This document shows, piece after piece, positions 982 to 50,600 of a stretch of 64,000 bases of DNA; the stretch's first letter is position 1, and each line of letters opens with the position of its first letter. The position numbers and the translations under genes were made by a program. Source of the DNA: Schmidtea polychroa (Eukaryota); contig CM097886.1 in assembly GCA_044892525.1 (NCBI GenBank), forward strand, positions 49,848,001-49,912,000, given 5' to 3'. Below the pieces are notes generated by a model that searched no databases, was not told where the DNA came from, and saw nothing but the letters and a program-made list of their open reading frames with translations.

Positions 982-1100
982 TGCAATAGACAATGTTTTG
1001 TTGAAAGCACATATTTTTCGGTGTCGGTATATTTTTCCTTAGTGCAATTGTTTTCTTTTATTTTCTTTTCCTAAATTTTTTTGGGGTAGAATTGATAGTA
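982..1100 (-). mobile_element. Inverted, internally deleted Penelope-like fragment
   Basis: The reverse complement matches 1670-1727 (aaaaatataccgacaccgaaaaatat..aaaacattgtctattgca) and the aattcta.ccc region of the adjacent + copy. Confidence 0.7.
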
Positions 1101-1129
1101 TGAAATATTTCCTCCCATACTTTTCTGCT

Positions 1130-2482
1130 CTTGGTCGTGATAAAAATATCATCTACATATCTTGCATTAAAACCGATGGATTGTATGGTCCTCAGTGTTC
1201 GACGTTCGAAGTTATCCATAAAGATGATTGTGGGTCAATGAGATATTAAGTTTGAAATCGAATATCCGGAAGAAGATGGATCCCTCAATCTACTGGATAT
1301 AAAAATTAAAATAGAAGTAAATACTCCAACATACGGGTTCTACAGAAAACCAGCTCGCAAAGAAAAATTTATGCACCAAAGATCAGCGCTTCAATACTTA
1401 CAGAAAGTACACGTCATATAAAACGAGAAACAAAGGATAGCCAATCGATGCACTGAAGAAAACGAAAACTTTAAACACCAATTCAATAACATCCTACACA
1501 ATAATGGATATCAAGGTAAGAACATTGAAAGAATGAATTCTATCCCAAAAAGATCTTGTCAAATAACACAAGAAAAGAAGAAATATTTTTATCTGAATAT
1601 CCAATTCATTAGTGGCATACTCGATTTCAAGATCCTGACAGAACTTAATCGCACTGGCCTTCTAATTCGTAAAAATATACCGACACCGAAAAATATATGC
1701 TTTCGATAAAACATTGTCTATTGCATCACGTGTAATGTATGTAAAAAAATATACATTGGAAGGACGCTCAGGACCCTGCGCCAAAGAGTTAAAGAACATC
1801 TTGATCCTGGTGAAAAATTAGTAAACAGACATGTCAACCAAAGAAGGAAAGAAATTGTCATTATAAACAGACGGCCAACAATCAACACTCAAGAACAGAT
1901 CAATGAAATCATAAGTTAGATTTGTTGCTTTTGACCTTGAGAATAGCTTTTATAGAAAAAATTAAATTAAAAATTAAAAAATAATAATTTAAAATAACAT
2001 AGAAAATAGATAAAATATACTTTCAAAAGATCAGAAGAATTTAAAAATCAAAATAGAAAAATTTTTGAAATATTTAAATTGCGTATATAAATAGTTATTG
2101 AAAAGTATAATTTATAAATATTTTAAAATAGTATTCATTAAAATAGGTTTCTAAAGACTAATTATAAAAGCTTTAAAAAATAAAAAATTTTTTTAAGTGT
2201 TTCGTTTTAAATTTGAGAGAATATTTAATTAAAAAAATTTTTTTTTTAATTTTAAATTCTTCAGAAAAAAATTTTATTATTATTTTCAACCAATGAGAAG
2301 TAAGAAAAATGAAATAAAAGAGAAGATCAAAGAGGATTTTACAAATAGAAAAAGCTAAATTCCATGAAATTGAAAAGGTATATCTTATGGTCGAAAATAT
2401 TTTCATCTGAATTAAATATATTATTCGCAACAAAAGGCTTAAAATATCATTTAATTGTTTTAAAATTTAAATAATGCTGCTA
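1130..2482 (+). mobile_element. Degenerate Penelope-like retroelement 3' part (RT thumb, GIY-YIG, AT-rich tail)
   Basis: IKFEIEYPEEDGSLNLLDIKI, YGFYRKP and [30 protein letters not shown], with stops and frameshifts. The tail is homologous to 12215-12730. Confidence 0.85.
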
Positions 2483-7111: not shown

Positions 7112-10100
7112 ATGGATAAAACTGGAAAATTACACTTGTCAGACCAAGGAATAGATAATATGACAAATCTGGTGTAAGTTGTTAAATTTTAATCACGAAT
7201 TATTATTTCTTAATTAATTAATTTTAATCTTACTATCAAATTAAAAGTTTTTTTATGGAAAAATAAATTTTTTTTAAATTACCAAGAATTTCTAAAAGAA
7301 ATATTAATTAGTTAAAATTCGTATTTCTATTATTCATGAAAAGCTTAACAGAGGATAATATTATGAATTCCAATTTTTGATGCCCTTTATTAATGAAGCA
7401 TAATTTCTATATTATTTAATAAATTTCACAATTATTGCCAATATCAAAAGTATTTTCGCTTTCTTTAACTCCAAACAAAATTTGCAGGACAAATAGAAAA
7501 TTATATATGACTGCTATATATTACTATAGCGTACTATATATATTTATAATATACACCTATAAAAGGAAATGCATCACATTTCGATCCAAAGTGAAGGATC
7601 TTTTCAGCAACAATGACCTTTTACTTTCACTACAGCTCTCCAAAAAATAGAAATGCTGACCTTTATTCTTTTAATATGGCAAATTGAATTAATGATAGAG
7701 CACTGGTACACCGCCCCCCCCCTCACCACTCTACTCATGGCTATATATATTATAAGAATTAGTTTTTTCAAATTTCACCACTGATTTCTTCTCCATTGTC
7801 ATTGTATTTATTAAAAAGCTTAACTATGAATCAGTAAATATATCAATGTTTTTTATATCTTTACTGATTCACAGTCATAAATACAATATATATCAGGCGA
7901 AATCTCTGTGTCAATTAAAATACAGAAATTCAGCCAACTGCTATTTTTAGACTCCAGACGCCTACATGATTACTAAATAAATGTAATATACATATGTACA
8001 TGCTTTATATTGTTTCATCATACAAATGTTACAAAAGACAACCTACTATTCTCTGTTTTTGTGTCATTTCACAACAGAAAAATGCGTCAGCTAATGTGTG
8101 ACATTTTTAATCGAGGGCTTGTTGACCAAATTTTTTCATAGTCATTCTGAAATGATTTTGGTTTGAAATGTTTACTTAAGGTGCCATCTTCGTATTTGTT
8201 TCTTTATTGCCATTTCAAAAAATTATCAATAAATATTTAACAAATAACAGTTAACTAGTTCGGAATAATACTAATAACATTTAATTTGTTTTATTGAAAG
8301 AAATAAAATATCTAAGCCTAAAAAATTTTAAGTCAACTCCTTTTATTTAAAAATTAATTTTATTATATTATGATCTTATATTATTCACGTAAAATCCATG
8401 TTCATCCAATCTCAGAAATTTAACATTTTCCATCAATATAATGCAGTTTCTACATAATTTTAATTTTTATTCCATTTTTTAAGAATGAACATAAGACACC
8501 AAGGATGGGTGAATTAATTAAATGAAATCATGTAGTGATAATATGTTGGCATAGGTAGGTATAGGAGAGAAAATATATCTAAGATTAAAAGAAGATGAAA
8601 AATTAAATTAAATTTTTTTAGTAAAAATGAAATTTCTGTGCGCAATTTTCTTAAAACCGAACTTTAGTAACCTTTACTATGACTATAAAATTCAAATCAA
8701 TAAGTTAAATTTTTTTTAAATGTTTTTAATATTTAATATTAGCATAACAGATTTTCATGAAATAGTTAAAATGAATTATTTATATATTATTCAATTATTT
8801 ATTTATATATTATATTATATATTAAGAGAAACGGTGATTTTCAGTTTATGTAAATGCACTACTTATTGGTAATTTTGCAAGCTCTCAGGTGAGAATGGGA
8901 TGACCATTATATCTACCAAAATTCTACTTGCTCGTCCCTGGTGCTACCGAGTCATTTACATGCATTTTCCATTTTTCAAAATTCATTTATTTTTCAACCA
9001 AAAACTCAAAACAAAATTTAAAAATTAACAAAGGTGCAAAAATTAATTTAAATTATTAAAAATAATTGAAAATCAATATTTTGGGGGAATAAGATATTAT
9101 CATGTAATTTCCAAAGTACATTGAAAAGATAAATACGAATATAATAATATTAAATCTATGACAATGTTATTTAAATATTACCAAGTAGATTGATTGAGAA
9201 GTTTCAACAAATTTAAGCAGATTAATTAGATAAAATTAGATAAAATCCGCTCTAGTTTCAATTGGGCCCCAAAAGAGTTTCCTGTTCTTATATTCAAACT
9301 AAAATAGGACTTCTATTATAGGTATAGTAATGACTATTGTTATATGAAAATTGACGATTTGTTATTTCTGTGCTAACAATAAATCTTATTAAGCAATTAA
9401 ATGATAATATAAGCCGTTTTCTGCGAAGTATATATTCAATAAGATGAAAAACTTTTCTATTATATAAAAATTCTTTCATTTTATTGAATATATATTCTTC
9501 ACAGCAAAAGACTTATATTATCATTTAATTGTTTAATATTGAATTAATGCTACTAAAAAGAAATCATCGCTTTATAATAAGTCTTATTGTTTTAACAAAA
9601 GTCAAGTGAAGAAAAAATTTGTTGTTTCCTGTAGATACTATTTAATAACCAAACAATATTAAGAAACGTATAATTATTTACTTATNNNNNNNNNNNNNNN
9701 NNNNNNNNNNNNNNNNNNNNNNNNNNNNNNNNNNNNNNNNNNNNNNNNNNNNNNNNNNNNNNNNNNNNNNNNNNNNNNNNNNNNNNNNNNNNNNNNNNNN
9801 NNNNNNNNNNNNNNNNNNNNNNNNNNNNNNNNNNNNNNNNNNNNNNNNNNNNNNNNNNNNNNNNNNNNNNNNNNNNNNNNNNNNNNNNNNNNNNNNNNNN
9901 NNNNNNNNNNNNNNNNNNNNNNNNNNNNNNNNNNNNNNNNNNNNNNAGTACGAAATTACATACTAAGCTTAATTAACAAACGAAACAAATTTATAATGAC
10001 TTAGGTTTTGCTTGTGAAATTTTCTTCTTAACCTATCATTAATTTTGAACTGAATTTTTGTTTTAAAATGACTATTAAAGCTAATTAAGACCAACACAAT

Positions 10101-13100
10101 AGCATAGCTAAACTCATCAATGCTGAATGATACAAGCTATATAAAATTTTGGTTCAGAAAGATATTTGTAACCTTTGTGATGATATAACTGATAGCCGTT
10201 AAATGCGATTTAAACTATTAAATTAATATATTCTTTCATCTGATTACAATAAAAAAACTAAATTCTTTATATAATATTTAATATAAAACTTATATTTCTG
10301 ACTAAACACAATAATCTAATTATATAATTAGCTTTGTGTGAATGTATATATAGTGACACCTCGCTATACGTTCTCAATCCGTTCCAGATCTTTGGACTTA
10401 TAACAATAGAATTTTCCCATAATCATTTTCACCTGATTCCGAGAATCTTGAACGGATTAAGAACATATACCGAAGTACCACTCTATATATAAATATAATT
10501 TGAGTTATTATATTATATATATTATAAATTTTACATTAAATAAACCAACTTTCAGACTTCTACATTTAAACAATCACAATAAAACTCTTTACTTTCCCAT
10601 GTCTCCAATCAGTTACTCCCAATCATATTTTTGACTGGCCTCCATAGTATAATATAATATTTATATTCCAAATTTTTGCACTTAAAATTTCTTTCCGTTT
10701 TTAGAGATTGTTTGATTTTATTACAGTATTTACAATTTTCTATAATAAATTTTTTAAAAATTGTTTCGTAACTTACTAGCGCTATTTAAATATATAAGAT
10801 TTGGAAGGATGGGACTGAACTGCCAACTGTAAACATAATTAGTTTCAAGGAATTTTCTGAAACGGTTATGTTACAAATTGTAATGTTTTGTCAAGATCTT
10901 TGAAATGAGATATTAATGTTTAATAATTTCTCTTGATAATAGGTATAGATAAAATCTTATTAGCTGAGAAAATGGGTCATTTTATATAAAGATTTGTAAT
11001 AACAACCAATTTGATCTTCAAAACTTATACCTTTACATTTGTTGGGATAACACGAAACTTAATAACATCGAAGAAATATCAAACAGCAAAATTTAAATCA
11101 TAAATTATAGTATTTTGTATGGAAAAATCTACAAGCAAGAATGATAAATAATAAATTGCTAAAATAAGCCGAAGATTAGAAAGCAAAACATAGGAAAGGA
11201 AAAGATTGTTTGAAAACATCTTATTCTCATCCATATCAATTTAGTTATGTTTTTACATTCTAAACATTTGTCTAAGGAATTATTGTAATAGTTAAATAAA
11301 ATTGAGCTATATTATTTACTGCTACATTTAATTTCTATAATAATAAACATAGCGAATCATATTTTATTATAAAACCCAGCATATTAAGTGCATATATTGC
11401 GCATGGTTTTATCTTTACTCATATCACAACGTTGCATTCCAGAAATGGACCATTTTGTCCTTCATATCAAAAATCTTTCCTTTTAACGCTAATAATTGCA
11501 CATTAGTATCATAAAAACATCCTATTTCAATTCCAAATAAACCGAACAGAGTCTGTTGAGTTTCTAGCAGACAAATATTATCAGAGATTTTGTTATAACT
11601 ATAGATTAAAACAATTTAATATTCTACATAATAAATAATATTTCAAAGATTTAATCTGAACTAATTAAAACCCTTTAACAAGAAATATGACACCTTTTAC
11701 ATTAATATATAAGAGTAAGCCATTAGAGGTAAAGAATTAATGTGTCATTGCTCAGTGTTATATTTATGCATAATTTTCAATCAAATGCTTTTGGTATCTA
11801 TAATGTTGGAAACTTAGAATCCGGCAATACTAAATTTATTATTATTATTATTTTGCTAAGGATTTGGTTTTTGTATATATTAATTACTTATTGCTTTTGA
11901 TTTCCTTGAAAATTTCTTAAATTTAATATAATGTTACCCGAAATCTAAGAAACTATAATAAATAAAATAATATTATAAATTTAAATTTAAATAATAAAAC
12001 AAAAATTCAAAATAAAATTTACTAATTCAGTAACTACGACTTCTGAATCTTTGACCTAATGACTAGAGTAATATTCTTTTATGAATGTTTAAAATTGTGC
12101 ATAAACATGGGGTCTTTGATTATATCAAATCGTTCAAGCATAAAAAAAAGATTTTAAAAAAATCATTGGCGTAACATTTAATTCTTACGAAATGGACTAG
12201 ATTTACAATACTGCAATATATAATTTAAGCCTTTTGCTGCGAATAATGTATTTAATGAAAATATTTTCGACTATAAGATGGTCCTTGTCAATCTCCTGGA
12301 AATTAGCATTCTTCTTCCAAACATACATCTCGATCTTTCTTTTATTTCTTTTTTCTTACTTCTCATTGGTTAAAAATATAATATGATGATATAGTTTCTT
12401 TTTCTGAAATTAAAATTAAATATCTAAAATTCAAAATGAAACACTAACCAAAATTTTTAAATTTTTAAAGCTTCTATAATTAGACCATAGAAGCCTATTT
12501 TAATAAAATATTTTAAAATATTTATAAAATAAAGCTTCCAATAACTATTTATATACGCGATTTAAATATTTTAATAAATGTGTCAATTTTGATTTTTATT
12601 CCTCCTTTGAAAGTATATTTCCTAAAATTTCTATATTATTTTAATTATTACTTTTTCTAATTTTTTTTATTATCAGTTATTCTCAAGGTCAATGACAACA
12701 GATCAAATTGATGATTTCATTGATTTCTTCTCTAGTGTTGATTGTTAGCCGCCTGTTTATGATGAGAATGGGTTCTTTGAACGTGACATTTTTCTTGGAT
12801 GTTTCCATTGGCTACGATTTCGATTGAAATATTTTTTACCGAGGATTTTCCACCAGGATCTAGATGTTCTTTAACTCTTTGGTGCAAGGTCCTGAGTGTA
12901 CTTCCAGTGTAAATTCCCGTGCATACATTGCACGTGATGCAATAGACGATGTTTTTTCTAAAACACATGTCTTTCGGTGTCTGGCAGTTTTCCATTGTGC
13001 AATTGATTTCTTTATTTGTGTTGTTTGCCAGAGCTTTTCTCAATGTCCAAGATTTATGTGCTACCCGAATTGGAAAACCGGTACGTTTAAGTCCTTTTAG

Positions 13101-16100
13101 GATCTTGAAGTCGAGTATGTCACTGATGAATGAGATATTATTAAGATAGAAATGTTTCTTCTTCTTTTGTGTTAATTCCCTAGATCTTTTTGGGGTAGAA
13201 TTCATTCTTTCAATATATATATATATATATTTAATACTATTGGATTTCTTACATATGTAGAATTCCGATTGGAAAATAACGTTTTCACGACTTTTTGATT
13301 TGAATTTGAAAATTGGAGTTTTGAAATGTATTTTGATTATTATCTTTGAAAACAACAATAAACCGGTATAAGGGAGACGAAAATTAACGATAAAAAGCTG
13401 AAATAAAATTTATTAATATATAATATATAATATTCCTCTAATCGAATATATTATATTTGTTTGGTGAAATCTGATCAACCAAAATAAAATTAAAACTATT
13501 AGAAAATAAAATTTATTGATGGCATATATTTTTGTATCTTGATATTTTATTATTATTAATTTATTATTAAGAATTAGATATATATTTAAGACCAATAGTA
13601 AAAAATGTTTTTAGAAAATTAACACCCATCAGCTATTTATATTTAATTTTTTATATATTAGTGAACTATCAGATCAGTCTCTTTTATCAAACCTTCAAGT
13701 AAGATATTCACAGAAATTGATTTACGTAATTATTTTTATTTTTTTAATTTTTATTTTGTGATAAATATTATAGACTTATATTGGCAGCATACTGATAAGC
13801 ATAAATCCTTACACCGAATTAGGAATTTATGATAAAAAATACATTGTTTCCTACCAAAACAAACTAATACAAGACATGCCACCGTAAGTTTGTTTTGTAA
13901 AATATTTTATTCCTAAATATTGATAATAAAATCATAAAAATTTTATTCATAATATTTTTGCAATACGATAATATTATAAAATATTTTATATATTAAATAA
14001 TATTCTTATATTTTGTTTAATCTTGTAATTGAAACAAATGCTTTTAAAATCTTTTAAAATATGTTGTTTTGAAAATTTTCTAAGCTAATCACTAATCATA
14101 AAATAATGGTAATTAAAATGCGATTTTTTACACCATAGAGTAATAAATTATGTAAAATTTTCTGATATAACTCACATATGTGTTCTTTTTATAAAATATT
14201 TTTAATTGTACACGAAACAAAAGCTCTGAGTAGTGTGCTTCTATTTTTTACGATAATCTCAATATTCAAGTTCCTTGAAATTTCTCTGCAATTGAAGCAT
14301 ATACTGTTTATTATTATTCGTCTAAAATATTCAAAATAGGTGATTAAATTTTAAATTAAACAGTTTGTTTGTTAAAACAAGAAGACTTTTAATTTTAATT
14401 CTTTAAAAGGAAGTTCTGTGATTTTTTTTTTAAAAATTAAGTATAAAATGTTATTTTTAACTAGTTAAGGCGCCCATTGAAAAATACCGAATACTTTAAT
14501 ATTATATACACGAAATATTTATTAATAATTCAATTTTTGCTAATATTATGCAAATTTAATAAAGAGCCTCTTGAAAAACTACATTGCATGTGAATTGTCT
14601 CTGGTCATTCGATAATTTTCCTTGCTGTGGATTCGATTCAATATACACCTTCACTTGACTTGCAACTCTTGATCGTGAGAAAGCCTCATACAATTGGCTG
14701 TTTGAAAATACTGGGTTCTCCAAAAAATTCCAATGTAGTCAAATGATCAAAATTGAAAAAAACAAAATGAAAATATTTTTTGAATAAATTTTAAATTCAA
14801 AAAATATTCCTATATATAAATTTTGAAAGCGTTACACAGTCAGTCAGTCAGTCAGTGATGAACGAAAATATATATACATATGATGTTTTCTAATAAATAT
14901 TAGTAAAGTTCTAAACAGTTATGGAAAAGTATTAGAAGAATTATTCAAAGATAAATTGAGAATGAAGCAATACGATCTTGTAGTTCAGGGATTCTCTGTC
15001 TATTCAAATGGGAGATCAAGAGATTTGAGAACTTTCAAACTGTATTATTGTAATTTCTTTGGGATTTTCTTATGAATGAATTAATTATGAAAGAAAAAGC
15101 GAATTAGAATGTAAGAAAAATAAAGATTTTAACCAGTATTGTAAAAAATAAGTTTACAATAATTCCAAGTTATTTAAGTTTTACAACATTTGAAATTGAT
15201 GGTTATTATTTGCCATCAAGTTCTTTGACTAATTCCTACTTTCTGGTTCTAAAATAAAATAGTAGCGGACAAAATGGTATAGATTTAAGTCTATTTAAAT
15301 AGAGTAATAAGTTTATTTTTTAAATTTAATTAGTTTTTTCCCCTATAATATATACTATATTATATACTTTACTTCCATCTTTTTGAGACAGAACAGCACC
15401 AATGCGGTCAAAACTTGCATCTGTATCCAAAATGAATGGCTTAGAAAAATCTGAGAACTTCAATACAGGTGAAGACGTCAATTTCAGTTTTAAATTTTGA
15501 AATGAAGTTTCACACTCATCAGTCCACATAAGCTTCTTTTGTTTACTTCCACATAACGCTTCTAATACTTTGGAATCTTTGGTGTAATTTTCTATAAATC
15601 TGCTATAGTAATTTACCAAGCCTAAAAATCCTCTCAAACTTTTGACGCATTTAGGTCTTTCAAAATTTTTAGTAGTTTCAATCTTGCTTTCATCCGTACG
15701 TATTCCATCTTCACCAATGATATGACCCAAAAATTTTACTTCTTTCCTTTTGAATTGACATTTTGCTGGACTTATTTTAAGATTTGCTAATTTAATCTTT
15801 TGAAAAACCTTTTCAATGGTACTATAATGTTCATTCAATGTCTTTGAAAATATAAGGATATCATCCAGATATACAATTGTTCCTTTCCAATTTAATTCTC
15901 CAAGAACCAAATTCATGAGTCTTTGAAATGTTGCTGGTGCGGCTGCTATTCCATATGGCATTCTGTTAAAGAAATATTGCTTGCTTTTTGTCGAAAATGC
16001 TGTTTTCAATTTTGATGCATCATCGAGTTCTACTTGATAATAAGCATTGCCTAAATCAATTGTCGAGAAAAACTTTGCTCCGTCAAGAATATCTAATAAT

Positions 16101-19100
16101 TCATCAGTATTTGGACCGTTTTGAAATGTCGTTCCAAAATTCCTTTCTTCGGTAATGAAACACTATTATTACAAATTAAACAACAGCATTTCTTCTTTAT
16201 CATAATAAAGAAATAATCATGCTCCCATTTTTCAAGATAGTGATAAGTTTTAATCTTTTTAGAATTATTCATGGTGTCACAATTTAAAAAATTTTTAATT
16301 TATGTCAATTTGATTACTACCACCAGTACAAATAGTTTTTGATTCTTGAAATTGAAAATGGGAACTTGAAAGGAAATAAATATCTGAAATATGAATATTT
16401 ATTGCCGATCGACCTAAAATCATTACGCGATCGACGTTATTGACATCTCTGCTATATACTATATGTATGAAAATGCCGATTCGCAAAGGTATGTAGATCA
16501 GAAACAAGAATAGATATATTCGCTACATTTGGTGACATTGGGATATTTTTCTCGGCTGACATATTTCCAAAAATCTTTTTCAGATTTTCTGGCTTGTCAC
16601 AGTAGTAAACAGAATTTTTCCCAGACATTGCGAGAGATCGACGATCGACCGGTCGATCGCGATGGACTTGTTGGCCACCACTGATATATAGCATTAATGT
16701 TGAAGGAATAGATTAACGATTAGAAAAGTAAGTTGCTTTTATTTTTTCCATGCCATTTTGTACATTGTACCATTTAATCATAGTACCACTTTGTCCGCTA
16801 CCATTTTGTCCGGTCACCCTACATTTCTTTTTTATCAAATAGCGAAATACACATGTGTTTAGTTTTTAGGTTTCTTTCAATCCAAAATCCACCAAAATTC
16901 TTTTTAATGACTTCATGATTACTTACTATGCTTAATTGAAATTCTTTTCATTGGTCTTCCATAAAATATGCGATTAAAGGAGTCCTTTTAGTTGTGATAT
17001 AAAAGAATATTTGTCATTTAGACATTTATTTGGAATCGGAGAGACGAATTACACGAAAATGATGAGAGATAATGAGAACCAAGTCATCGTTATCAGGTTA
17101 ATCAAAACAATATATTTATTAATTTCAATATTTCTCACAGTGGAGAATCAGGAGCTGGAAAAACAGAAAGTTTTAAAAGGTTGCTGAAATATTTTGCATA
17201 TGTATCTGGTGGATTTAAGGAAGTAAAGCAGAATTCTGATCAGTTGTCGAACGATATTGCCACACGAATTCTAGACAGTACTCCTCTATTGGAAAGTTTC
17301 GGTAATGCTCAAACGATTCGCAACGACAATTCGTCAAGATTCGGTAAATACGTGGAAATATTTTTTGACAAGTAACAAAAATTAATAATTGAATTTGATA
17401 ATTATTGTTATGTCAATTCTTTCCTAGCGGTAACATTTGTGGCTCACGGATCACGAATTATCTGTTAGAGAAATCCAGAATTGTTAATATTGTATTTATT
17501 ATATTTTTAATTATAAATTATATAATAATAATATATTATTATAAAAGAATCCCAGAGAAAGAGGATATCACATTTTCTATGAAGTTCTTCTTGGATTGGA
17601 CTCATTCAACAAAAGCCAATATTATTTCAAGGACATTAAAGATTATTCGTATCTCAGCAATGTAATACTCATATATAATTTATTGTTTTTATAATATTAT
17701 TTATTATCTTTGTTAACCTCCACATTACTGCAATTTGCATACCTGACATCTTTTTACACTCCATTTTAATGTTTTCTTTACCCCCACCAAGTTTAAGATC
17801 ATGTTGTTCGTACATTCTTCGCCAAAGAGTCTTGAAAATTTGAAATTTCAACTCTTGAAAACTTTGAGTGACTTCCATTAATAAACAGTTGCTGATCAAC
17901 AACTTTATTTTACTTGTATCTATAGTTTTATTTTTGGATCTTATTAATGTTATGGATAAATGTAACATTTTCAAATTGAATATACCATAAGCAAACAACT
18001 TGTGCATCACATTCACGTGAATGTTTTTGGTTGCCTTTAATATTGTCAATAGCTGGTAAATTACAGTTATAAATTAGTTAGGCGGAATGCCACAAATGCG
18101 TATGTGGGCATTTATCTAATTGAATTTATTAAAAGAGAGTGTGAAGACTATAAATCAGTAATTTATCGATGTTTGTTGATACTCACGAATTTTCGGCACT
18201 GCATTTTTCAAGTGAATTCTCATTTGAAAAAGGCAGTGCTGAAAATTCGTGAGTATCAACAAACATCGATATATTACTGATTTACACTCTCTTTACACTC
18301 TCTTTTAATAAATTCAACAGAAAAAATAATCAGTGGTGAAATTGGAAGAAATAAAAGTTCTTATAATAATTTATCTAATTGTTGATAGCAAAGTTAATTA
18401 GGAAATGTTGTATTTCCATGGATTATAAGAAAATTGCAAACAAGAAAAAAATAGCATTTATTTTATTTTGTCATTTTTAGTCTTAAGTTTATTTTCTCTT
18501 CGATAATTATGCGATAATTATAATACGATAATTATAAAACGTTTGAAAGCATAACCAAATATATTTTGACTCAAAATAAAAAAAAACAAATAACTACACG
18601 TCTAAAAATTGGATTAGAGTAAACAAAGTTAAATACATTTAATATATTTTTTTTTGTAATTCTCCACATATTTGGATGGCTACGATAAAATGAGGAGTTT
18701 AGACCATTATGAGATCCTTCATAGTAATTAGTGGTCTTTAAAGACTGGTGTATCAAAATAATTGAAAATTTCATTGTATCCTTCACCAGGAAATGTTTCA
18801 GCAAGTTGGTAAAACACAGTTCTTAGATCTATCATAAGAATAAATGCCAAGGCAGCCAAAGGTTTGAGTTTAAGTTTTAAATTTAAATCACTTTCGAAAG
18901 CACTTCTAAGATTAACATTACTAACTTTTCTTATTATACTATGGGACGAACGACAGTTGCAGACTTTCACTTCAGTATTAGGAAAAGCATTTTTCAGAAT
19001 GTAATAGTGTCTATTTTCTATTCACATTATTTACAGTTGATCCTGACTTGTAATACTGATATCGAAGGTTTGTTAACATTTTGGTACATGTCGTTACCAG

Positions 19101-20540
19101 GAATATCTCCTTCTTTATATTATAGACGTATTAAGTTATGATCACATAAACTCCATATCCACAAATTCTATACAGATTTTTCTGGATAATTTATTTTTTA
19201 TTTCGTTTCATTGTGCATTTTTGTGTGGACTCTTTATTATAATTATTCATATATATAAATAAGTTTTTATTAAAAATTTTTTACCAGTCTAAAGAGTTCA
19301 CAATTAAAGATCGAAACGATGCTGCAAATCTCAAAGAATTTATGAATCAGTGGGACTCATTAGGATTGACGAGTGAAGATTTAGATGTTGCAATGAGGAT
19401 CTTGAGTGCCGTTTTGCATCTTGGTAATATTAAATTCATGGAGGAACAAGTAAATTATCGATTATTTTTAAGGGTTTATGAAAATATTTTTTAATTAAGG
19501 AGGCCAGTTATTTAGTGGAAACTGAGAATATTGGGATCGTTTCTAAAATGTTAAAAATTGACCATGAGTCATTGAAACAATGCCTAACGATGAAGACAAC
19601 TGTAAGAAGATTTTTTAATATTTACTTTGTTTAGAATACTAATTAATATATTGGCTAATATTAAAATAACGAATTTTATTTGTTTTTTTATTAATTTATA
19701 TTAAAAAAAATATGTCCTTTTTTCGAAATTACTGATCGCTAGCTGAACATTAATCATTTTTACCTGAAAATGCCATATTAGCTTTGGAAATAGTTTGATC
19801 CTAGGATCTAAGTTTCTTGTTTCGATTTGATTCATTTAAACAAAATATATAAATAGAATTTTATATTTTAAAAGATATTTTTAAAAGAAATTATTTGTAT
19901 GTTTCCAAAAAATAATTAAAGAGTAAATAATAGGTTTTGAGTAACACTTAACGTTTTAGTTAAGATTTACATATTTATCATAGTTTTACAAGTTTATATG
20001 TAATTGTAATATTTATCACATAATTAGAAATCTTTCGATTTATTATAATAATTTATTATCTTAATAATAACACTAACAATTGTATTTATTAAAAAACTTG
20101 ACTATGAATCAGTAAAGATATCNNNNNNNNNNNNNNNNNNNNNNNNNNNNNNNNNNNNNNNNNNNNNNNNNNNNNNNNNNNNNNNNNNNNNNNNNNNNNN
20201 NNNNNNNNNNNNNNNNNNNNNNNNNNNNNNNNNNNNNNNNNNNNNNNNNNNNNNNNNNNNNNNCGACTAATTTTTTAGTCCGCAGAGGTGATTATGATTT
20301 TTCATACGCCATGTTTACAAGTTTACAGATTTTTTCTGTGACCAAGCTATTTTGCAAGCGATGTGATTTCCAGTGTACCGGGGAAAGTATGCAATAGAGT
20401 TGAATCAACAATATTGTATACTTACCTGGCGCGAAGAGAAATCTTCGTGTCTCCCGCATAGTACTGATGAGAGCCAAAAGCTCGAAACTAGTCTACTATT
20501 GGGATTTGCACTGGGTATCACAAAGCTTGTACTGTTTATT

Positions 20541-20612
<72 letters not shown>

Positions 20613-23096
20613 CTGAACTAAACAAATACTGTTAATCAGTTATAACAAAAATCATTTTGTTTTTAAACTTTCTTTTAACATTGCGAATTTGACGAAATCT
20701 ACTGGAATTTATTGCCATTTTTACTTCTTTTTATTTTACAAAAAAGAACAACTAGTATACTAAAGATTGTTAAGTGTACATTAAATCTTTTAACATTTTG
20801 ATTTTTAATTAATCGGTATATACAAAATTTATTAAAATTATTTAATAAATTAATTTTAACTCGTTCTCAATGAACTAAATACCGCTCTTACATATTTCCA
20901 AAATTTCAATAAGTTACTTATAAATTTGAAAGCAAATAAATTCATATATATTGTCCGATATTTTCTTGTTAATAACTAACCAATTGATTAATTGCAAAAA
21001 TCATCTTAAATTAATTTTTAAAAATGTCATTATTTTTTATTGATTTTTTATTGCTAACCAATCATTTTATATGGATTCTGAAATCATTATTGATTATTTT
21101 TTTCAAACAATAATTCATAAAATTAAATGATAAAATTTATTTTAAACTGATCTGCCGCATAAAACTTTTTGATGTAACTTTTGTTTAAATAAGCAGTTGG
21201 TAGGTTTGTGCTGGCATTTGCATTATTTATACATTGAGTATTTCATAATGCCAATAATTACTATAGATGTTACCAAACAAAATTTTATCAAGCAATAAAA
21301 TAATTNNNNNNNNNNNNNNNNNNNNNNNNNNNNNNNNNNNNNNNNNNNNNNNNNNNNNNNNNNNNNNNNNNNNNNNNNNNNNNNNNNNNNNNNNNNNNNN
21401 NNNNNNNNNNNNNNNNNNNNNNNNNNNNNNNNNNNNNNNNNNNNNNNNNNNNNNNNNNNNNNNNNNNNNNNNNNNNNNNNNNNNNNNNNNNNNNNNNNNN
21501 NNNNNNNNNNNNNNTACTTTACTTAAATGTGAATTTGAATTTTATTTTAATTTAAGGAAACCGTAAAAGATGCATCAATTAGCCCTTTGAATATGGAACA
21601 ATCTATTAATTATAGAGATACACTTTCCAAGCATCTTTATTCGGAGTTATTCAACTGGATCGTCACTAAAGTTAATGCAGGTTTGAACCAAAACAATTTG
21701 CCTGTTCGACGCCAATCAGTAGTCGACAGGTCTCTACTTTCGGCGGGATCCACATTTCGGTCCATTGCCATGCTCGATATCTATGGGTTTGAAGTAAAAA
21801 TTTAATTCAATTCCTGTAAATTCATATCGTTTTTTCATCACGAAATTTCTCATTCCGAATTTATTATTTTATTTTACTTGTTATTATTGGTTCTTTATAC
21901 AGGTTTATTTGGGATTTTGGTTACAAGTTGTAAATTTAAAAAAAATATGAACTCATTAAGCTACAAAACTTGTAACAACAATTTCCAATCTGTTTTCTTT
22001 TCATTTTTCTAATATTTTATAACAGTAAATTCAATTGGAAGAATATAAAAGTTTTCGATACAAGCTGTATCAAGTCTTTTTATAAAGAACTTTTAAATGT
22101 TTATGTAGAAGTTGATAACTTGTCCCATGAATGAATTGAACCACCAACTTTTCTAAAAATGTTTGTAGTAATTTGTTTGTTTGTTATTGAGTTTGTTCTT
22201 TGAGTCGCCGTTTGAATATTAGATAAGTTTCACTGATGTAAATTTCGTCACATATTGGATGAATTACCATATAAAATAGACGGATAATATAATTTTATAT
22301 ATTTACTTCTCAAGCATGGCTCCAAGGAAAACAACGCTTAGACATACATCGACAATGCAATAATATAGCCACTCTCCCATTTCATCAGTTATTCTTCTCA
22401 TAGATTCTGAGGACTTTTAAAAATAAAATGCATTCTGAGAAATTTGAAGTTGATAAAAACTTTTTAGAGAAATTTCTTATATTTATATCAATTGCCTATT
22501 CTTAATTTCGTCAGTATCGTGAGCAATATGTATTAGAACCAGCCTGCCATCCTGAACCACTTAAAAAGGACGTTTTAATTGTTTTAAGTAATTGTCTTGA
22601 AATAAAAATGAATAGTTATTGACGATTGTTTAATATTTTTGTCTTATATAATTCATTATGTGTGATATTTAATGGTTTACCTTAGAGAAATTCAACTGCT
22701 ATGAATGTCATACACAGGGCCGTAACAAGGGTGGTGCGAGCGGTGCAGTTGCACAGGGCGCACATCTGAAAGGAGCGCAACATTGGGATGTACCAATTTT
22801 TTAATGTCACCAAAAAATGAAGAAATATAAAAAAAACGACATCCTAGCTAGCCTATCTTTAGCATTACTGGTTGCACTGGTCCATTAGCGTGCCTTCGTA
22901 GGTGTGTATTTTATAAAGTGTTAGTTCACAAAATGGTTTCCTGTCATTTTTTCAATTAGCAACAGTATTTTAAGAGCATTACTACCTATTATAATAGCTG
23001 GAGATGAATACATAGTCAACAATCTTAACATGAATATTATAATTATTATAGTAGGCTGTTTCGAATTCGCGTGATGGGGGCGCCAGATATATGAAC

Positions 23097-25725: not shown

Positions 25726-28700
25726 GTTGGCTGACATTTTACACTTTTTTATGATTTTCTTTATTTTTATTTATTAATAATATTTGTTACCGTTTGCAAA
25801 AAATATTAGAGTTCTTTGTTACTTAACATTCAATAGTATCAAATATTTGATTAAGGGGTTTTCATTAGCCATCTGAAGTTCATTAGGAATATCAACATAT
25901 TTTATTTTAAAAATGGAAACATATGGTAATTAAAAAAATAAATACAGTAGACCCCCGCCTTACCATGACTCACAATTACGACTAGCCTAGCCACGCATTC
26001 CCCCAGCCTACAATAGTTAGGCCTTAACTTCAATGAAAGTATAATGACTAATTTTGTAACAAAATACTAGACATTCATGTTTTCAATCACAATACTGCCG
26101 AATATTATTAAGAATTTTGTTTTATTTTTAATATTTATTAATAAGTGAATAATATCTAGTGAATAATATTTAAAATACAAACAATATTTCTTTCATAAAA
26201 AAAATTTAAACTACAATTTTATTAATTAAATTTGGTACAATTGTGTATTTGAGTACAAAAGCTACTTTTCGTGTGATTGAGAAGAGCAGTATTCAATTGG
26301 GTCATCGTCGATTGCAACTACATCATTTTCAATTGTAAAATCTTCTATCACGACTGTATTATCAACCTCCATTGATTGGCTGGCACATACAGGTTGAGCA
26401 CCTTGAGCATGCCCGAATTAATCTCTTCGTAGGCCCTAGGCACTTTTACCTTTAACCCTATCGTCTTTTGCCAGTATCCCTAATGAAGTCAGCTGTGGTT
26501 TATTTTTAAAATGCGTTTTTTTAATTCCAAAGTGTTTTTGTTTAACAACACTTTATTTAAATAACAACGTTTAGTTTCATTCCATATTGGTTTATTTTAT
26601 GAATGTTATTTTGTGAATATTATTTGCGCCTTTATTTCGCTTTATAACGTTTTTCTACTACGATCGATATTACATGAAGAAATGCTTATTTCGTATATGT
26701 ATGACGATGATGAGTACCAATTATTATACTTTAAGTCTTTTGTTTCTAAGTTTAAATTCCACGCATTTGAAAACAAAAATTTTAAACCTGCTTGATATGA
26801 TTGGCTGGTTTATTTTCAATTGCAAAGAAAATTCATTTTCTTACATATGTATACGAATGAAATTAAATTTTCTGTGATTATAGCTGTGCAACCATAGAAA
26901 CTGATTTTTTTACAAGTAATTTTCTGAAAAGATTAAGAAATTTCTATTGTGTTTCTACTTTGTTAGAGTTATCTAGTTATAACAAATAATATTGCTGTAA
27001 AACTATAAATATTAATTACTTATTAAAAGTAAGTAAATTAAAAATAAGAAAGTAAGAAAGTAAAATGTCTGACGGATATAAGAGAAAACATGAATCGGGC
27101 TCCGAAAAGCGTAAAAAGAAAATAGTCAAAGAAGAAGCATTGAAAAAAATGAAAGGTTCACTACTCAAATATATAACGGAAACAAGAGGAAATAATGAAA
27201 GCTGGTCTACAAATGTAACCGAATTTATTGCTCCAGAAGACCAAAATCAAAATAAAACTTCTAATAATGGAAATTATCTTGGTTGTATCGATCTTATAGC
27301 CGAATTTGATCCTTTTTTAAAAGAACATATTCGAAGACATGCAAATGCTGGAAGAGGAAATGTTTCCTATTTATCTAATGCTATATGTGAAGAATTTATT
27401 GGTATATGTAATGTACAGTCATACATTTTATTTATTTTTAAACAAGGTTTCGCGACACTTTGTTATTTTATTGAGGGTAAGCCGTAATGGCAAAGGAATA
27501 AAATATACTATATAGCGATAATTTACTATGGTAAATTATCGCTATAGAAAAATTGACAAAACGAAAAAAAACCAATAACTCCATTAAAATATACAACTGA
27601 AAGAAACCAAAAAATAACGATAGAAATAGCTTTGAAATAAAATCTACCAGACTAAAAACGAATAAAAGACGAAGATCATAATAAATAGCCGAAATAAAAG
27701 AAAGCAAAAGATATCCGAAAACAAAATACTCTTCGAATTTGCCTATATCCGAAACTAAAGAAAACCAAAATACCCTTCGGATTAACTTATACCTGAAAAC
27801 AAAATATCCTTCGGATCAATCTATATTCAGAATCCCTTCGGATTAATTTATATCCGAAACCAAAATACCGTTCGGGTCAATCTATATTCAGATCTAAAAT
27901 AAACTAAAATACCCTGAGAAACAAATTATACTCGAGACTAAAAGAAACCTAACTATCCTGAGAAGAGAATTATATTCGAAACGAAGTCCATATAAGAGCG
28001 TATTATTTTATTTATTTCATTAATAAAAGTTATTGTTTGTATGTGTTATTGTTAATTCATTACTGTATTTTTATACATTCCTACATACATTCACCCCAGC
28101 TGTCCCGAGACAGTTTATTTACTGGAGACTCGGCTGGGCTCTTCAAATCTCTATTACACACGCAATCACTCATCAACTACACAAAAAAAACAAATATAGA
28201 TCAACGAATACAATAACAGTATACTAGGATCTAAAGTTACAACGCAGATAATATCTGAAATAAAATATTATGGAATCAGCATTGATTCAACTCCTGATAT
28301 TAGTCATATGGACAAGCTTACCGTGATCATTCGGTATGTACTTAAATGTGGAAATGTGGTTGAACGATTTTTAAAATTTATTGCAATTGAACAACACGAT
28401 GGAAAATATTTATTCGACATTATACGACATACTTTGGAACATTATAACATAAGTATTAGAAATTGCAGGTCCCAATCATATGATAACGCCAGTAATATGA
28501 GCGGCATATATGCAGGTGTACAAGCTAGATTTTTGAGAAATAAATAGTCTGGCTGAATGGGTTCCATGTGCTGCTCATAGTCTTAATTTGCTAGGTTCAA
28601 CTGCTCTGGAGTGCTGCTTGAAAGCAGTAAAGTTTTTTGGAATTTTACAAGCAATATACACTTTTTTTTGTACTTCACCACAAAGATGGTCCAAATTTAA

Positions 28701-31700
28701 AGACAATATGAAAGAAAATACTTGTGTTGTTAAATATTTATCAGAAACCAGATGGTCTATTCGACATGATGCTACTAAGGCTCTATTTATGAATTATTCA
28801 GAAATTCAACAAGCATTGTTTGAAATAACTGAAAGCGAACGTCAACCTGCTGTGGCTGTGCAGGAAGCGAAATCTTTAATAAAAAAGCTGAACAATTTTG
28901 AAACAGCATTGATGTGTGTTATTTGGAATGATTTATTACAAAATATTAATATTGTCAATAAAGCTCTGCAGGAGACTGGCATAGAATTATGCACTATTGT
29001 AAAATTATTTGATACTCTCATAGTTTACTTTCATGATATTCGTTTAGAGTTTGATAAATTTGAAACCATGGCAAAAAAGATTACATCCTCCGAATATAAA
29101 GAATATACACAACGTAAACGAACACGAAATAGATTTTTTGATGAAGTTTTAGACAACACAGATCCTAGCTTGAGGCTAAGTGCAAGAGACAAATTTCGTA
29201 TAGAATCTTTTTATATAATAGTAGATAGACTTATAATTGAAATGCGTAAGTGACTTGGAGCATATCAAATGTTATATGAAAGGTTTAATTTTTTGGTGGA
29301 CAGAAGTTTAACAAATAATGAAATAGTTTCGAAAGCAAACCAGTTAGTGCAAATATATTCTTCAGATGTTGAACATGCATTTGTTGACGAGTTTTTATTA
29401 TTTTCACGAATGTATGGGAATAAAAAATCAGTGAAGGAAATGATAATTGCACAAATAAATGATAAACTAGTTACCAGTTTTCCTAAAGTAAATATTGTGT
29501 TAAGAATTTATTTATCGATATTTGGAACGAATGCGGAAGGGGAACGGAGCTTTTCAAAGCTTAAAAGGAACGATTATCATATCTTACGCTTTTATCAATT
29601 GAAAGTGATTTAATGCGAGAAATTAGTTTCGAAGATGTTATTGTCGAATTCGCCAATAAAAAATGTAGGAAGGTTAGTTTAGGTAATAATTAAATAAATT
29701 GTTTACTAAATTAATGATTTTTTTTTGGTTTTTTGAAAATAAATTTTGAATTATTTTGGATTAAGTGAAGTTTTTCTGTTCATGCTTTGGTTGAATATTT
29801 ATTATATAAATCTCTCGTAAATAATAATATGTATACATTTTCGTAGGCCATTTACAGTTCGTAGGCCCTAGGCACTGCGCCTATTGTGCCTATGGGATAA
29901 TGCGGGTGTGACCTTGAGCACCCCCAAGAATAACTGGAGTCTTCATAAAATAACAATCTAATGTTTTTTGAAATGATGGCTTTTTTCATAATATATTTGT
30001 CTGTACCAAGTGTAAGCTTCCTTTATTAATGAATTAACCTTCGAACTACGTTGAAAATTCGGGTCATCATTTTCAAGACCTACGACGAATTAGCCATTTA
30101 TAACATTGGGTCAATGGGAAATAAAACCTCTCTTTATGACTGCTCACATTGCGACTTCTTTTCAGCAACCAATTAGGTCGTAATTGCGGGGGTTTACTGT
30201 ATATCAAGTTCAAATATTTAAAAATTCATTGGAGCTTGTGTAAAAGTACCTATGTGAAAGTATATTAGGTATCAATGTCCTTAATTAGACGCTAGGTTGC
30301 TGTAATGGGATGTATTCTAAACTTCTTTAGAGTTTCATTCTTTAAATTACTAAACATTGTTTAAATTATTGTGAAAATGAAATAAAATTTTTTGTGAGAA
30401 AAGCCTTAGCACAAAGGTGTTAAATGGATCATTTTATAATGATTTGAATAACTTTACTGACATTTTTTTCTCAGGCGAAGAATCAGGAAATTGCATATAG
30501 GAATTGTCAAATTGCAGGCATTCGTTCGAATGCAAATCGCCAGAAAAAAATTTCTGCGGGTTATTACGATAATAAATTTACTTTATTTTTTCACTCTACT
30601 CGTTTAGGCTCATCCATCATTTACAAAGTTATCCATTTACAACAAGCCCATTGAACCGAAAGGCCAAGATAATTCGAAACTGACTGCATACAAGGTAAAT
30701 TGCAAAATTATTCACCAAAAGATAAACTATTGAATTTAGGCACCAGTTAGTGGAATTCTTAAAAAGGGCAAAAAAAATAAAAAAAAGACTTCTATTGGAA
30801 ATGCGTTTAATTATGATTTGTTAAAAATACCGATTGAATTAGCTTTCTTATTGGATAAAACAGAAGGTATATTTAAAACTTTTAATCGTATTAATGGTAA
30901 GGCTAAAACAATTTGTAAAATATTTATAAAAGTAAAAAAGAAAAATAGAAAATATAGATAAATATCCAATTGAGGGAGCCATTATTAAAATTAATCAAAC
31001 TACACTCTGCATATCCAATCACATGAGTAAATGAGAATGTAATAAAAGGTCCTTGGGGTCTTTTCAAAAGGAAATTTTAAATTATGTTTGAAAATATTTC
31101 TTCATATTCGGACACGTTTATGTGAAGTTGAAGATTTTATCGTGAATAATCGACCTTTGATGTATTAGCAGTTAGAAGGCGTGGTACATAGCTATCAGAA
31201 ATATCTGGAGAGAAAAGGTGTTGACATTGAAACGCACTGTTGTCTCTCTGATCGGGGTTTTTCTTTCACTTTGAAAGATTTTATATGACTTTTCTGTTGA
31301 TCTCACATGGACTTCTTGGATTTTCTAGATCAACCACAGAGGTTTTTCCAGCTCTATATTCATTGAACCATTGTTTTATTGTTGCCAATGGAATAATTTC
31401 TTTGCAATAGACATCATTCAATTCAATTTTAGTTTCATTTCAATTTTTCCCTTCAAATACAAAAACCAAATCCCACGGCAAAATTACACGCTTTTCAATG
31501 AGATTTTCAAAGTAACACAACAGTTGGTCACCAAACGATAACCAACTAAAACAAAATACTTTATGATTTATTTCTTAACAATATTTTAAAATTCCCTTTC
31601 ACCTTTCTATATTAGGCTCACTAATTATAGGGCACAACACGAATGCAGATATTTAAGACAAAAATTTACAATAAATTTCAGTTGATTATTGTATTTCAAA

Positions 31701-47600: not shown

Positions 47601-50600
47601 TGTGTCAAATACTAAAGCGGATATTTTATGCGGTTTACCTGACATGAGGTATTACACATATCAGAAAGTCCCTTGGACTTGTATGTTGAAAAGAGAGGTA
47701 TTTTCTATTGTTTTTCTAATGGAGATTAAATTGAATTCCCATTCTAGATTTATCTCCCAAATGAAATCCAGAATACAACTATTATGAATCCCATGATATT
47801 TTGTCAGATTGTTCGAGATTTGATTGAATTCCCATGTATTCGTTGGATTGGTAACGAAAAGCGAAAACTTTTATCTCTAATTGGTAAGAAAATATTAGTA
47901 ATCAAATTATTAATCTTTATCACTCANNNNNNNNNNNNNNNNNNNNNNNNNNNNNNNNNNNNNNNNNNNNNNNNNNNNNNNNNNNNNNNNNNNNNNNNNN
48001 NNNNNNNNNNNNNNNNNNNNNNNNNNNNNNNNNNNNNNNNNNNNNNNNNNNNNNNNNNNNNNTTAAATAGGAAATCGAGTGACAACAGACATTAACTCCA
48101 TCCTTGCAGTACCAACGAATACAATGCTAAAGGTTATAGATGAAACCTTAAAATGTGAATTATATTTCTCTCGATTTTATGAAATTAAAGTAAATGTTAA
48201 TATTAATGTATGATAAAACTTTAGCAATTATATAAATAAAAAATTAGTGGGTGAAAATGCCCGAAGTGGGTAGCACATATCATTGGATGTCGATATCGCA
48301 CAGTGGTGTACGGTTCGTCTATCAGAATTCAAAATCATCCGAAAATGAATTAATGATTGGATCGCATATTTTATATTCAAATATCGATAAGGTCACTTGC
48401 AAATCCCCTGATCAATATAACAATTTGCAAATAATGACAATTACAACAAAACCAGGCAAAAAATTCAAAATCAAAACTATCCACGTATGGCAGTGTTTTG
48501 TAAAATATGAATTTTCACAACCGATATTTCTTTAGGCAGATTCTGCACGAAAATTGATAATGGAATTTTCAGAACAACAGAAAATAGAACAAGTAAGGAG
48601 TTTGTGTTAAATAGGGTTGATGATAATTTCCCCCGATAAATTTAATGTCTTAATGTAGTTTTAGTTTATTATTATATTTATTATTATTTATTTTTAGAGT
48701 CATGGAACGATCAATCTAGCCAGTAATTTAAATAATAAAAAACGAACTCGCAACCTTTTAAATGGTATAATAATGTCAAATCTTTCATTTTCAAATTTAC
48801 CTATAGAAGCTGTGCCATTTACAGATTCTGGACCGATGATGCTTGGTGTAAATAATCAACGGATCCAATTTCCCAGTCATTCGAATTCTTCTAATATATA
48901 TAAAAATATCGACAGATCAGTAGACATAGAGAAAATCTACGATAAAGTTAAAAAACAAGGAAATCTCATAGATTTTACCATGAGCTTTTCCAAATATAAG
49001 TAATTTTGAATGATATATTATATTATTTGTGATATTATTCAGAGACAGGCAACATGTGTCAAACGTTATCCTTAGATGGCAACAAGACCCTATCAAAGAA
49101 CCAATACTTCAATCATCAAACGATGGAATTATTCGGCAAGCCATGGAAATACATAATTGTAAGTTTTCTGTTAAGAATAAAATCTGAATAAATTTCTGAC
49201 ATAATTATGAAATTTTGATTTATCGAAACCATTTTTGTTTTTGGTGATTTTTTTGCAAAACTTCGTAAAATAGAATTTGCACATATTTCTAGGAATTTCG
49301 TATTGTAAAAAATTCTGGTTTTTTGTACAAAGGATATAATTTTTATTTTAATTTCGGATATTTATAAGATTATTATCCAACCAAAAATAATTATTATTTT
49401 AAAAATTTAATCTGAAAATAACCATTATTATTATTATTATGCACTTGTAAACAGTTTCTGTATATGACGGTATCTCCAGAGGTGAAACTGGTTTTTCATA
49501 CGCCATGTTTACAAGTTTACAGATATTTGTTTTCAGTGATTTAGCTAATTTGCAAGCGATATGATTTCCAGTGTGCCAGAGAAAGTATGCAATAGAGTTG
49601 AATCAGCAATATTGTATACTTACCTGGTGCGAAGAGAAATCTTCGTCTCTCCTGCATAGTACTGATGAGAGCCAAAAGCTCGAAACTAGTCTACTATTGG
49701 GATTTGCACTGGGTATCACAAAGCTTGTAATGTTTATATTATTATTATTATATTAAATTTTTAATTAAAATTAGTTTTATTGCTTTTCACCGACGATATA
49801 TCAAGCGGCCGAAATCCTAATCCGATCAATTCAGCAAATTTGATATTCAAGGTAAATTTGTGAACAATTTTTAGTCAAATTTAATAAATATTAGATGCTT
49901 TTGCAAAACGAGGAGTTAAATGAAGAAATTTTCGTACAAGTATTTAAACAAATTAATGGAAATCCATCGATTAAATCGTAAAAACATTTTTTAGAAATTC
50001 TTTGAAACATTTTTGAATTTATTTTAGGAGAAATTATTTATGGAATTTTCTCTCAATTCTGATAATGTTTATTGGCGTGAATCAGAGAATGCAGCCTTTT
50101 CTTTTAGAGCACTTGAATCAAATTATAAAAAATGTTTCAAATGAAGATCAGCGTAATTGATAAGTATAATAATAAGATTAATTTTTGTGTTATTTCTAGA
50201 TTTGGCGGCTTTCGCTTTAAAAAATTATAAAATATTCTCAAAATTCGGACCAAGGAAAGCGCTCCTATTGGATAATGAATTCGACCAATTAATGGTAAGC
50301 AAATTAAAACCACTTTATTTGCGGACAGTCATATGACTTGTATGAATAAGATAAAAATGAATAAGGAATAATGGGTCTTTAAATATACTCAATATGTATT
50401 ATAATAACGAATTTTATGATTGGTGAATTGAAAATATTTGCGACACACAAACTAATAAAGACGGTTACTTGCTGGACGAATAGGGATATATTTCAAATGG
50501 TCCAAAAATATAATAAACTAATCGAAACATCAAACTGCCATATAATAAACCTAAGATTATAAACCACAACATCACAATTGTAAATGATGGGATTTTAAGC

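Follow-up and report, generated by a model that had tools for sequence, protein, structure and literature searches.

A hammerhead retrozyme with the tip of U1 snRNA, probably copied into a myosin intron of Schmidtea polychroa by a Penelope-like element

We analysed a stretch of 64,000 nucleotides from Schmidtea polychroa, hereafter the window (GCA_044892525.1, contig CM097886.1, positions 49,848,001 to 49,912,000). It holds, in a myosin intron, an element (copy 1) that is probably a recent, 5'-truncated copy of a 378-bp non-LTR retrozyme, carrying nucleotides 1-16 of U1 snRNA and likely copied by a Penelope-like element (PLE) into a (TAA)n tract. The analysis establishes the repeat unit with its arrays and copy number, the pattern left by insertions, the identity to U1 and the intron that hosts the copy. 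An earlier note had delimited a short mobile element at 20281-20540 and described it as a non-autonomous retrozyme or solo pseudo-LTR (pLTR) with a minimal hammerhead, plausibly mobilised by PLEs. The location was right, but the element is larger: its visible part covers 20264..20543 on the plus strand, and its 5' end enters a stretch of N. The hammerhead parts were recognised, but the U1 tip at 20418-20433 was missed.

The hammerhead of copy 1, including an extended stem I, occupies 20452..20504 (+) and is supported by the sequence, a motif scan, Rfam HH9 and pair probabilities. Stem I has 6 bp (20458-20463/20494-20499) and is extended by 5 bp (20452-20456/20500-20504) beyond a one-base bulge. 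The core CUGAUGA (20464-20470) is followed by a 4-bp stem II (20471-20474/20480-20483) with the loop CAAAA, by GAAA (20484-20487) and by the palindrome ACUAGU (20487-20492). C17 is 20493, the hammerhead core as a whole spans 20464-20493, and the cut is predicted at 20493/20494. Core nucleotides, stems and palindrome therefore sit as first described, by sequence, scan and folds alike; the label "minimal" does not suit the motif. By the definitions in the available text of PMC4209133, the PLE min-HHR is marked by an additional base separating positions 9 and 10.1; in copy 1, A9 directly adjoins G10.1. Because helix I has 6 bp, helix II has 4 bp, helix III is short and palindromic and the 9/10.1 insert is absent, the hammerhead belongs by its sequence to the canonical metazoan type I rather than to the min-HHRs.

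A type search with Rfam models, which the earlier note had suggested, returned nothing at gathering score for copy 1, but Hammerhead_HH9 matched 20449-20513 with E=1.1e-4 (26.5 bits; cut-off 52). The note had also staked its reading on other genomic copies, and these exist: the 42-nt hammerhead motif occurs 611 times in exact form genome-wide and the reversed-pattern control 0 times, so the hammerhead is not a product of chance. Within the window, a structure-aware scan of both strands found two such hammerheads, that of copy 1 and one at 49662. GTC and GTM patterns, tried as a route to further hammerhead families, returned mostly variants of the 378-bp family or chance matches.

The genome searched comprises 781 Mb in 1,012 contigs and is AT-rich. 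Copy 1 corresponds to unit positions 99-378 and is identical at 280/280 positions to a unit in the array locus L017. The element has 41 matches at 99-100% (40 scored among 2,101 candidates), and its 100% identity to dispersed copies indicates that copy 1 is very recent. The unit is non-coding, with many matches at 378-bp spacing; the combined pattern of U1 tip plus core has 1,185 matches in the genome and none for the reversed-pattern control. Arrays reach ~11.5 units, and one of 4,338 bp is 99.9% uniform. Their junctions are exclusively head-to-tail, with no linked ORF, low GC and, judged by these junctions, no LTR organisation. A second copy in the window (copy 2, 49439..49741, +) belongs to an older subfamily, with 88% identity over 311 columns, an intact hammerhead (core 49662) and a U1 tip (49616-49631) with one change. 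Given the 378-bp unit, the 611 exact hammerheads and arrays of about 11 units, copy 1 is, on sequence grounds, a non-autonomous non-LTR retrozyme of a recently active family rather than a solo pLTR. This upholds the first of the two options in the earlier note, for a multicopy element whose arrays consist of pure units without an ORF.

The cut-to-cut monomer is predicted to fold tightly as a circle (-127.6 kcal/mol, z -9.5 against 100 shuffles; the antisense gives z -7.0). In the MFE folds, 20353..20377 (+) forms the 5' strand of a long helix, paired with about 20507-20531, that encloses the domain of U1 tip and hammerhead. Between these two parts, a hairpin of 8-10 bp with a GAAA tetraloop is predicted at 20428..20451 (+), and a common subfamily variant at 20448 retains its pair. 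Among the contigs of the family in sequencing run X1 is a head-to-tail junction, which fits a circle, a multimer or read-through alike; another repeat in the intron of copy 1 is deep in X1 too, and depth over the element there was rejected as a measure of expression. A search of 39 loci for a longer parent through common flanks found none, only microsatellite and scattered repeats without a fixed junction. In metagenomes, 0/80 checked matches to U1 tip plus hammerhead, from at least 119 existing matches, had a hammerhead fold. Just upstream of copy 1, in the same intron, lies the end of a high-copy repeat (20079-20122), also present at 7801-7844 and 52447-52490.

We characterised insertion footprints at 42 retrozyme loci with 52 3' ends, merging overlapping loci per insertion and excluding the window's own site. 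The main 3' end is U-rich, lies 50 nt downstream of the cut, corresponds in copy 1 to the putative priming site at 20529..20543 (+), and accounts for 37/52 ends. A further 11/52 lie 36-48 nt beyond it and 4/52 elsewhere. For part of the loci, the query used to pick them stopped at the main end; where loci were chosen without regard to their ends, the 35 ends divide into 22 main, nine further-on and four elsewhere. TAA/TTA repeats then follow 35/52 ends, and copy 1 itself is flanked by a (TAA)n microsatellite (20544..20611, +), the presumed target. The 5' starts are scattered over unit positions 1-370, and inverted pairs occur among the copies. Since the genomic ends do not lie at the hammerhead cut, we infer that priming is internal, with a circle or multimer as template. 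The retrozyme thus combines the traits of a PLE insertion, namely a fixed 3' end with an optional tail, 5' truncation, inverted copies and a microsatellite target; the accessible part of PMC8557442 counts such a tail, of 30-40 bp, among the PLE hallmarks, along with inverted copies and microsatellites as targets.

The GIY-YIG remnants that the earlier note had reported in the window are present and belong to a young PLE family. One, a remnant of the candidate mobiliser, is a 5'-truncated GIY-YIG end with pLTR at 12220..13214 (-), 82% identical to the active family and recognised by Pfam as GIY-YIG. The other, at 982..2482 (+), includes inverted pieces and is 74-87% identical to the active family. 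The family (L141:2216-4783, L142:4781-5280) has also left pLTR scraps near 9467, 41110 and 42383 of the window. It is abundant, has an intact 856-aa frame of reverse transcriptase plus C-terminal GIY-YIG, and its full copies are ~99% alike. At 33 loci its ends show the same geometry as those of the retrozyme: 28/51 at a U-rich main position, 18/51 a further 30-50 nt on and 5/51 elsewhere, with the same microsatellite after 38/51. These matching footprints strengthen the case for Penelope-type mobilisation, and we consider it likely that the 378-bp retrozyme is spread by a co-resident PLE.

Sequence common to the retrozyme and the young PLE was not detected by blastn, and an alignment of the 3' ends gave p=0.09. 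A hairpin at the priming site is present in the PLE but in only 1/4 retrozyme copies folded in isolation, and a shared 3' sequence or hairpin was rejected as not significant. PLE pieces lay within 300 bp of the copies at 3/39 loci against 0/33 controls, a weak excess. As to the linkage to Penelope ORFs that the earlier note proposed to check, PLE protein matches occur in 11/120 loci; at the C2 array, L066 and L077 they are separate insertions by coordinates. Neither strand of the 500-nt pLTR of the young PLE contains a CUGANGA core. The available text of PMC8557442 calls hammerheads universal in such PLEs, and the hammerhead-less young family stands against that statement. At least two older PLE families (L322-L348; e.g. 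L333, L341, L344) carry, 3' of decayed GIY-YIG frames, hammerheads with an extra U. The pattern with this extra U between positions 9 and 10.1 matched 30 loci, of which 29 were taken and the remaining one belongs to the 378-bp family; GIY-YIG sequence lies upstream in 6/29. Because these older hammerhead-bearing families exist beside the young PLE that was measured, the PLE partner is not pinned down.

The same data bear on the second option of the earlier note, that copy 1 is the solo pLTR of a PLE. The PLE-type footprints would suit such an origin, as would the homology of Xenopus retrozymes to pLTRs described in the accessible portion of bioRxiv 10.64898/2026.07.22.740005. Against this, neither the pLTR of the active PLE nor the hammerhead regions of the 29 extra-U loci resemble the unit, and this lack of relation makes a solo pLTR unlikely. 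The hammerhead is canonical rather than minimal, the head-to-tail arrays consist of pure units without an ORF, and the few PLE protein matches include the separate insertions named above. In the loci fetched, moreover, the unit is neither continuous with an ORF for reverse transcriptase plus GIY-YIG nor a homologue of a terminal repeat. We regard the solo pLTR as extremely improbable and retain the reading of copy 1 as a retrozyme.

The U1 tip (20418..20433, +; unit position 253-268) agrees at 16/16 positions with nucleotides 1-16 of the U1 genes L031-L033 and L037, a match with a chance of ~6e-8 in the unit. On the minus strand it reads as a perfect 5' splice donor. A mere antisense splice donor is insufficient as an account, since U1 nt 12-16 also match. 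The match begins exactly at nt 1, the five bases past the splice-site complement agree as well, and the probability of nt 12-16 given nt 1-11 is ~2e-4, which argues for more than a splice-site complement. A switch of reverse transcriptase to U1 snRNA as template, with run-off at the 5' end of that RNA, is the simplest and most likely origin that the analysis offers. Template switching accounts for the arrival of the tip, not for its retention in a second organism, organism B. In contigs of that organism, the block alignable at 80% or more extends from the tip (L017 1646-1654) to a point shortly beyond the hammerhead. The 30 bases visible upstream of the tip differ in that organism, and the second base of the tip appears changed.

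One alternative is that the element captured the start of a U1 gene, with an internal snRNA-type promoter that initiates at 20418, so that cleavage would yield a capped 76-nt RNA with a free tip. The precise start of the match at U1 nt 1 fits this, as do the prediction that the tip is mostly free in such an RNA, which would run for 76 nt from the first U1 base to the cut, and the precedent of newt satellite 2, with its snRNA promoter as cited in the available part of PMC2220036. We compared the region with 13 U1, U2, U4, U5 and U12 promoters, which have a common motif near -71 (information 6.8 versus 5.2-5.7 in shuffles). In leave-one-out, 8/13 promoters score 6.3-11.1, although a model from 13 promoters is weak. 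At the expected place in the element the motif scored 2.3, a value reached at 17% of the element's own positions, and by this 13-promoter model the unit holds no site above chance. The sole echo is a TGCAA word at -65 of the tip, close to its place at -66 to -68 in several snRNA genes. Against capture also stand the lack of homology between the sequence upstream of the tip and the upstream regions of U1 genes, and the nature of that sequence, a predicted RNA helix that differs in organism B. We therefore judge promoter capture unlikely and keep template switching as the preferred origin.

Two other candidates were set aside in this connection. TATGCAA at -30 of the tip scores 6.4 as a promoter motif, within chance. 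X1 and X4 contigs begin exactly at 20418, which could be taken for a start site, but the variant at 20448 breaks 31-letter words there. Among the snRNA genes themselves, an ATGCAAA-like motif near -70 of U1, U2, U4, U5 and U12 genes (L033, L035, L040, L147, L351, L363) is a candidate proximal promoter element. The U1 genes L031-L050 are unusually diverse: in several variants the tip that reads splice sites is altered, and one variant is repeated in tandem ~30 times at a period of 1.7 kb. L034 (reverse complement position 1842; also in L033) contains, in an snRNA gene cluster, a U1-like 5' start of ~19 nt without a U1 body, 18/19 bases of which agree with the tip region of the element.

A further alternative holds that the tip is a working RNA module under selection, acting as a U1 decoy on donors after refolding or cleavage, or as a perfect donor on the opposite strand, and helping the element in export, processing or survival. 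The organism B block, which begins at the tip and runs through the hammerhead while the upstream bases differ, speaks for it. So does the finding that nt 1-16 show no subfamily-type variant in 34 copies chosen independently of the tip. The arm complementary to the tip (20378..20396, +), a predicted mask that pairs with U1 nt 1-11 except nt 7, mostly avoids GT: a GT donor-like word occurs in 3/156 masking arms, with array units counted repeatedly. Yet folding predicts, for circle and solo copy alike, that the tip is fully paired with this upstream arm, nt 7 excepted. Conservation of the tip within this genome is also no higher than that of adjacent positions (majority fractions of 0.87 and 0.82 versus 0.87-0.94), and downstream of it there is neither an Sm site nor any other U1 domain. 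A working module is in our view improbable. Equally doubtful is the wider picture of a circular RNA parasite that keeps the tip as a switchable module, concealed within the circle and exposed, on a capped fragment of 76 nt or through refolding, to serve as a U1 decoy, while using the enzymes of a PLE that lost its hammerhead. Template switching remains the origin we prefer.

Copy 1 lies in sense orientation in the pre-mRNA of a myosin gene, as the earlier note had said. The host intron, 19602..21556 (+), is defined by an X1 contig that joins 19601 to 21557; Pfam recognises Myosin_head, and the best PDB match is myosin XV. The contig, of 5,532 nt, has the joins 19449-19500 and 19601-21557 and then continues into the next exon. 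The exon joins, together with almost no coverage of unique intron sequence in X1, indicate that X1 behaves as RNA and that the intron is spliced. The gene (17076-54427, +) is large, with a proline-rich middle part, and by eye copy 2 also seems to lie in sense in one of its introns. Broken transposase-like frames at 27056-29610 (+) inside the gene, which we take to be hAT-like, gave no significant Pfam match for the one piece submitted; short tandem repeats lie at 27711-27892. Elsewhere the window contains an LTR-type retrotransposon fragment with reverse transcriptase and RNase H (15329-16162, -), an 85-bp near-perfect inverted repeat (18131-18304) and ~8 copies of a 15-bp tandem repeat (60335-60478).

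The earlier note had suggested that the element could cut its host pre-mRNA, and the reading that it thereby regulates or damages the myosin gene draws on several features. The intron holds the copy in sense orientation, with another sense copy 29 kb downstream; folding of the solo copy predicts both stem I and stem II; and coral and mussel monomers do cleave well according to the available text of PMC7229834. Helix III in copy 1, however, is of the weak one-pair type, with one A-U pair plus the CUAG palindrome. For an axolotl hammerhead with a one-pair helix III, monomer cleavage reached 6% within one hour, and the dimer cleaved far more efficiently (PMC7229834, in the part available). Given this likeness to the axolotl monomer, a lone intronic copy is predicted probably to cut the pre-mRNA only weakly. 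Spliced mRNA across the intron is seen in X1, though the splice alone does not imply that X1 animals carry the insertion. The copy is also very recent, and two probable DNA runs give a weak hint of an insertion-free allele, with 20 bases on one side only. The joint concerned, 20119 to 20641 (X7, X9), starts in a repeat and was not counted as such an allele. Regulation or damage of the gene by cutting is very unlikely, and copy 1 probably does little to the myosin gene.

A cycle can be proposed from these elements. RNA of a tandem array would be cut by hammerheads paired through their ACUAGU palindromes, giving 378-nt monomers that likely circularise into a tightly folded RNA. A Penelope protein with reverse transcriptase and GIY-YIG would nick a TAA tract, and synthesis would be primed either at the U-rich site, 50 nt downstream of the cut, or ~40 nt beyond that site. 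Reverse transcriptase may then run round the template for a variable distance, which would account for multimers and inverted pairs as well as for truncated monomers. Entry of the U1 tip most likely was a single event, a template switch of reverse transcriptase onto U1 snRNA with run-off at the U1 5' end, and today the tip would be locked in its predicted hairpin. A lone intronic copy such as copy 1 probably would cut the myosin pre-mRNA weakly.

That animal retrozymes ride on PLEs has so far been argued from co-occurrence and from homology to pLTRs. In this genome, a young retrozyme and a young PLE show the same two-position 3' ends at the same microsatellite yet have no common sequence. They form a concrete candidate pair for trans-mobilisation, one that suggests recognition through structure or position and not through a tail in common. 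If it is only a fossil, the U1 tip documents a template switch; a functional tip would connect a ribozyme parasite with host splicing. As one more intronic copy, the locus has little weight. The literature searched, mostly titles and abstract openings, contained no retrozyme with U1 sequence and no 378-bp family, and the supplements of PMC4209133, PMC7229834 and bioRxiv 10.64898/2026.07.22.740005 may list flatworm hammerheads. In the available text of PMC7229834, "snRNA" occurs in a reference title only.

Compared with known systems, the element is closest in build to the metazoan non-LTR retrozymes, among whose named carriers are flatworms. As described in the accessible parts of PMC7229834 and bioRxiv 10.64898/2026.07.22.740005, these share with it a non-coding tandem unit of 150-450 bp with a type I hammerhead, low GC, a self-paired predicted circle, monomers and multimers, and PLEs in the genome. 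The S. polychroa unit differs in carrying U1 snRNA nt 1-16. Its link to PLEs is a 3'-end geometry that matches a hammerhead-less PLE, and its circles are predicted only; unlike the Xenopus retrozymes, as far as the bioRxiv text available describes them, it has no homology to a pLTR of its own genome. With EN+ PLEs and the min-HHRs of their pLTRs it has in common microsatellite targets, 5' truncation, tandem or inverted insertions and a 30-40-bp tail (PMC4209133 and PMC8557442, in the portions available), but it differs in having no ORF, a canonical hammerhead and no sequence link to the PLE families examined. The SINEU elements of crocodilians are likewise non-autonomous and contain sequence from the U1 5' end, with no internal promoter found; template switching onto U1 was proposed as the origin of their heads (Kojima 2015, PMC4494074, in the text available). 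In SINEU the U1 or U2 piece is a 5' head, mobilisation is by Tx1 and, in that text, a hammerhead is not described, whereas here 16 nt lie base-paired inside a circularly permuted unit whose 5' starts spread over 1-370. Newt satellite 2 also unites a hammerhead repeat with part of a small-RNA gene, its snRNA-type promoter, and schistosome Sm-alpha is a hammerhead repeat tied to a tRNA-related SINE with a pol III promoter (both as cited in the available parts of PMC2220036 and PMC2770079). Compared with newt satellite 2, it is the transcribed U1 sequence that is present here and the snRNA promoter motif that is absent. The retrozyme is thus of a kind known from many animals, and the U1 tip is its undescribed part.
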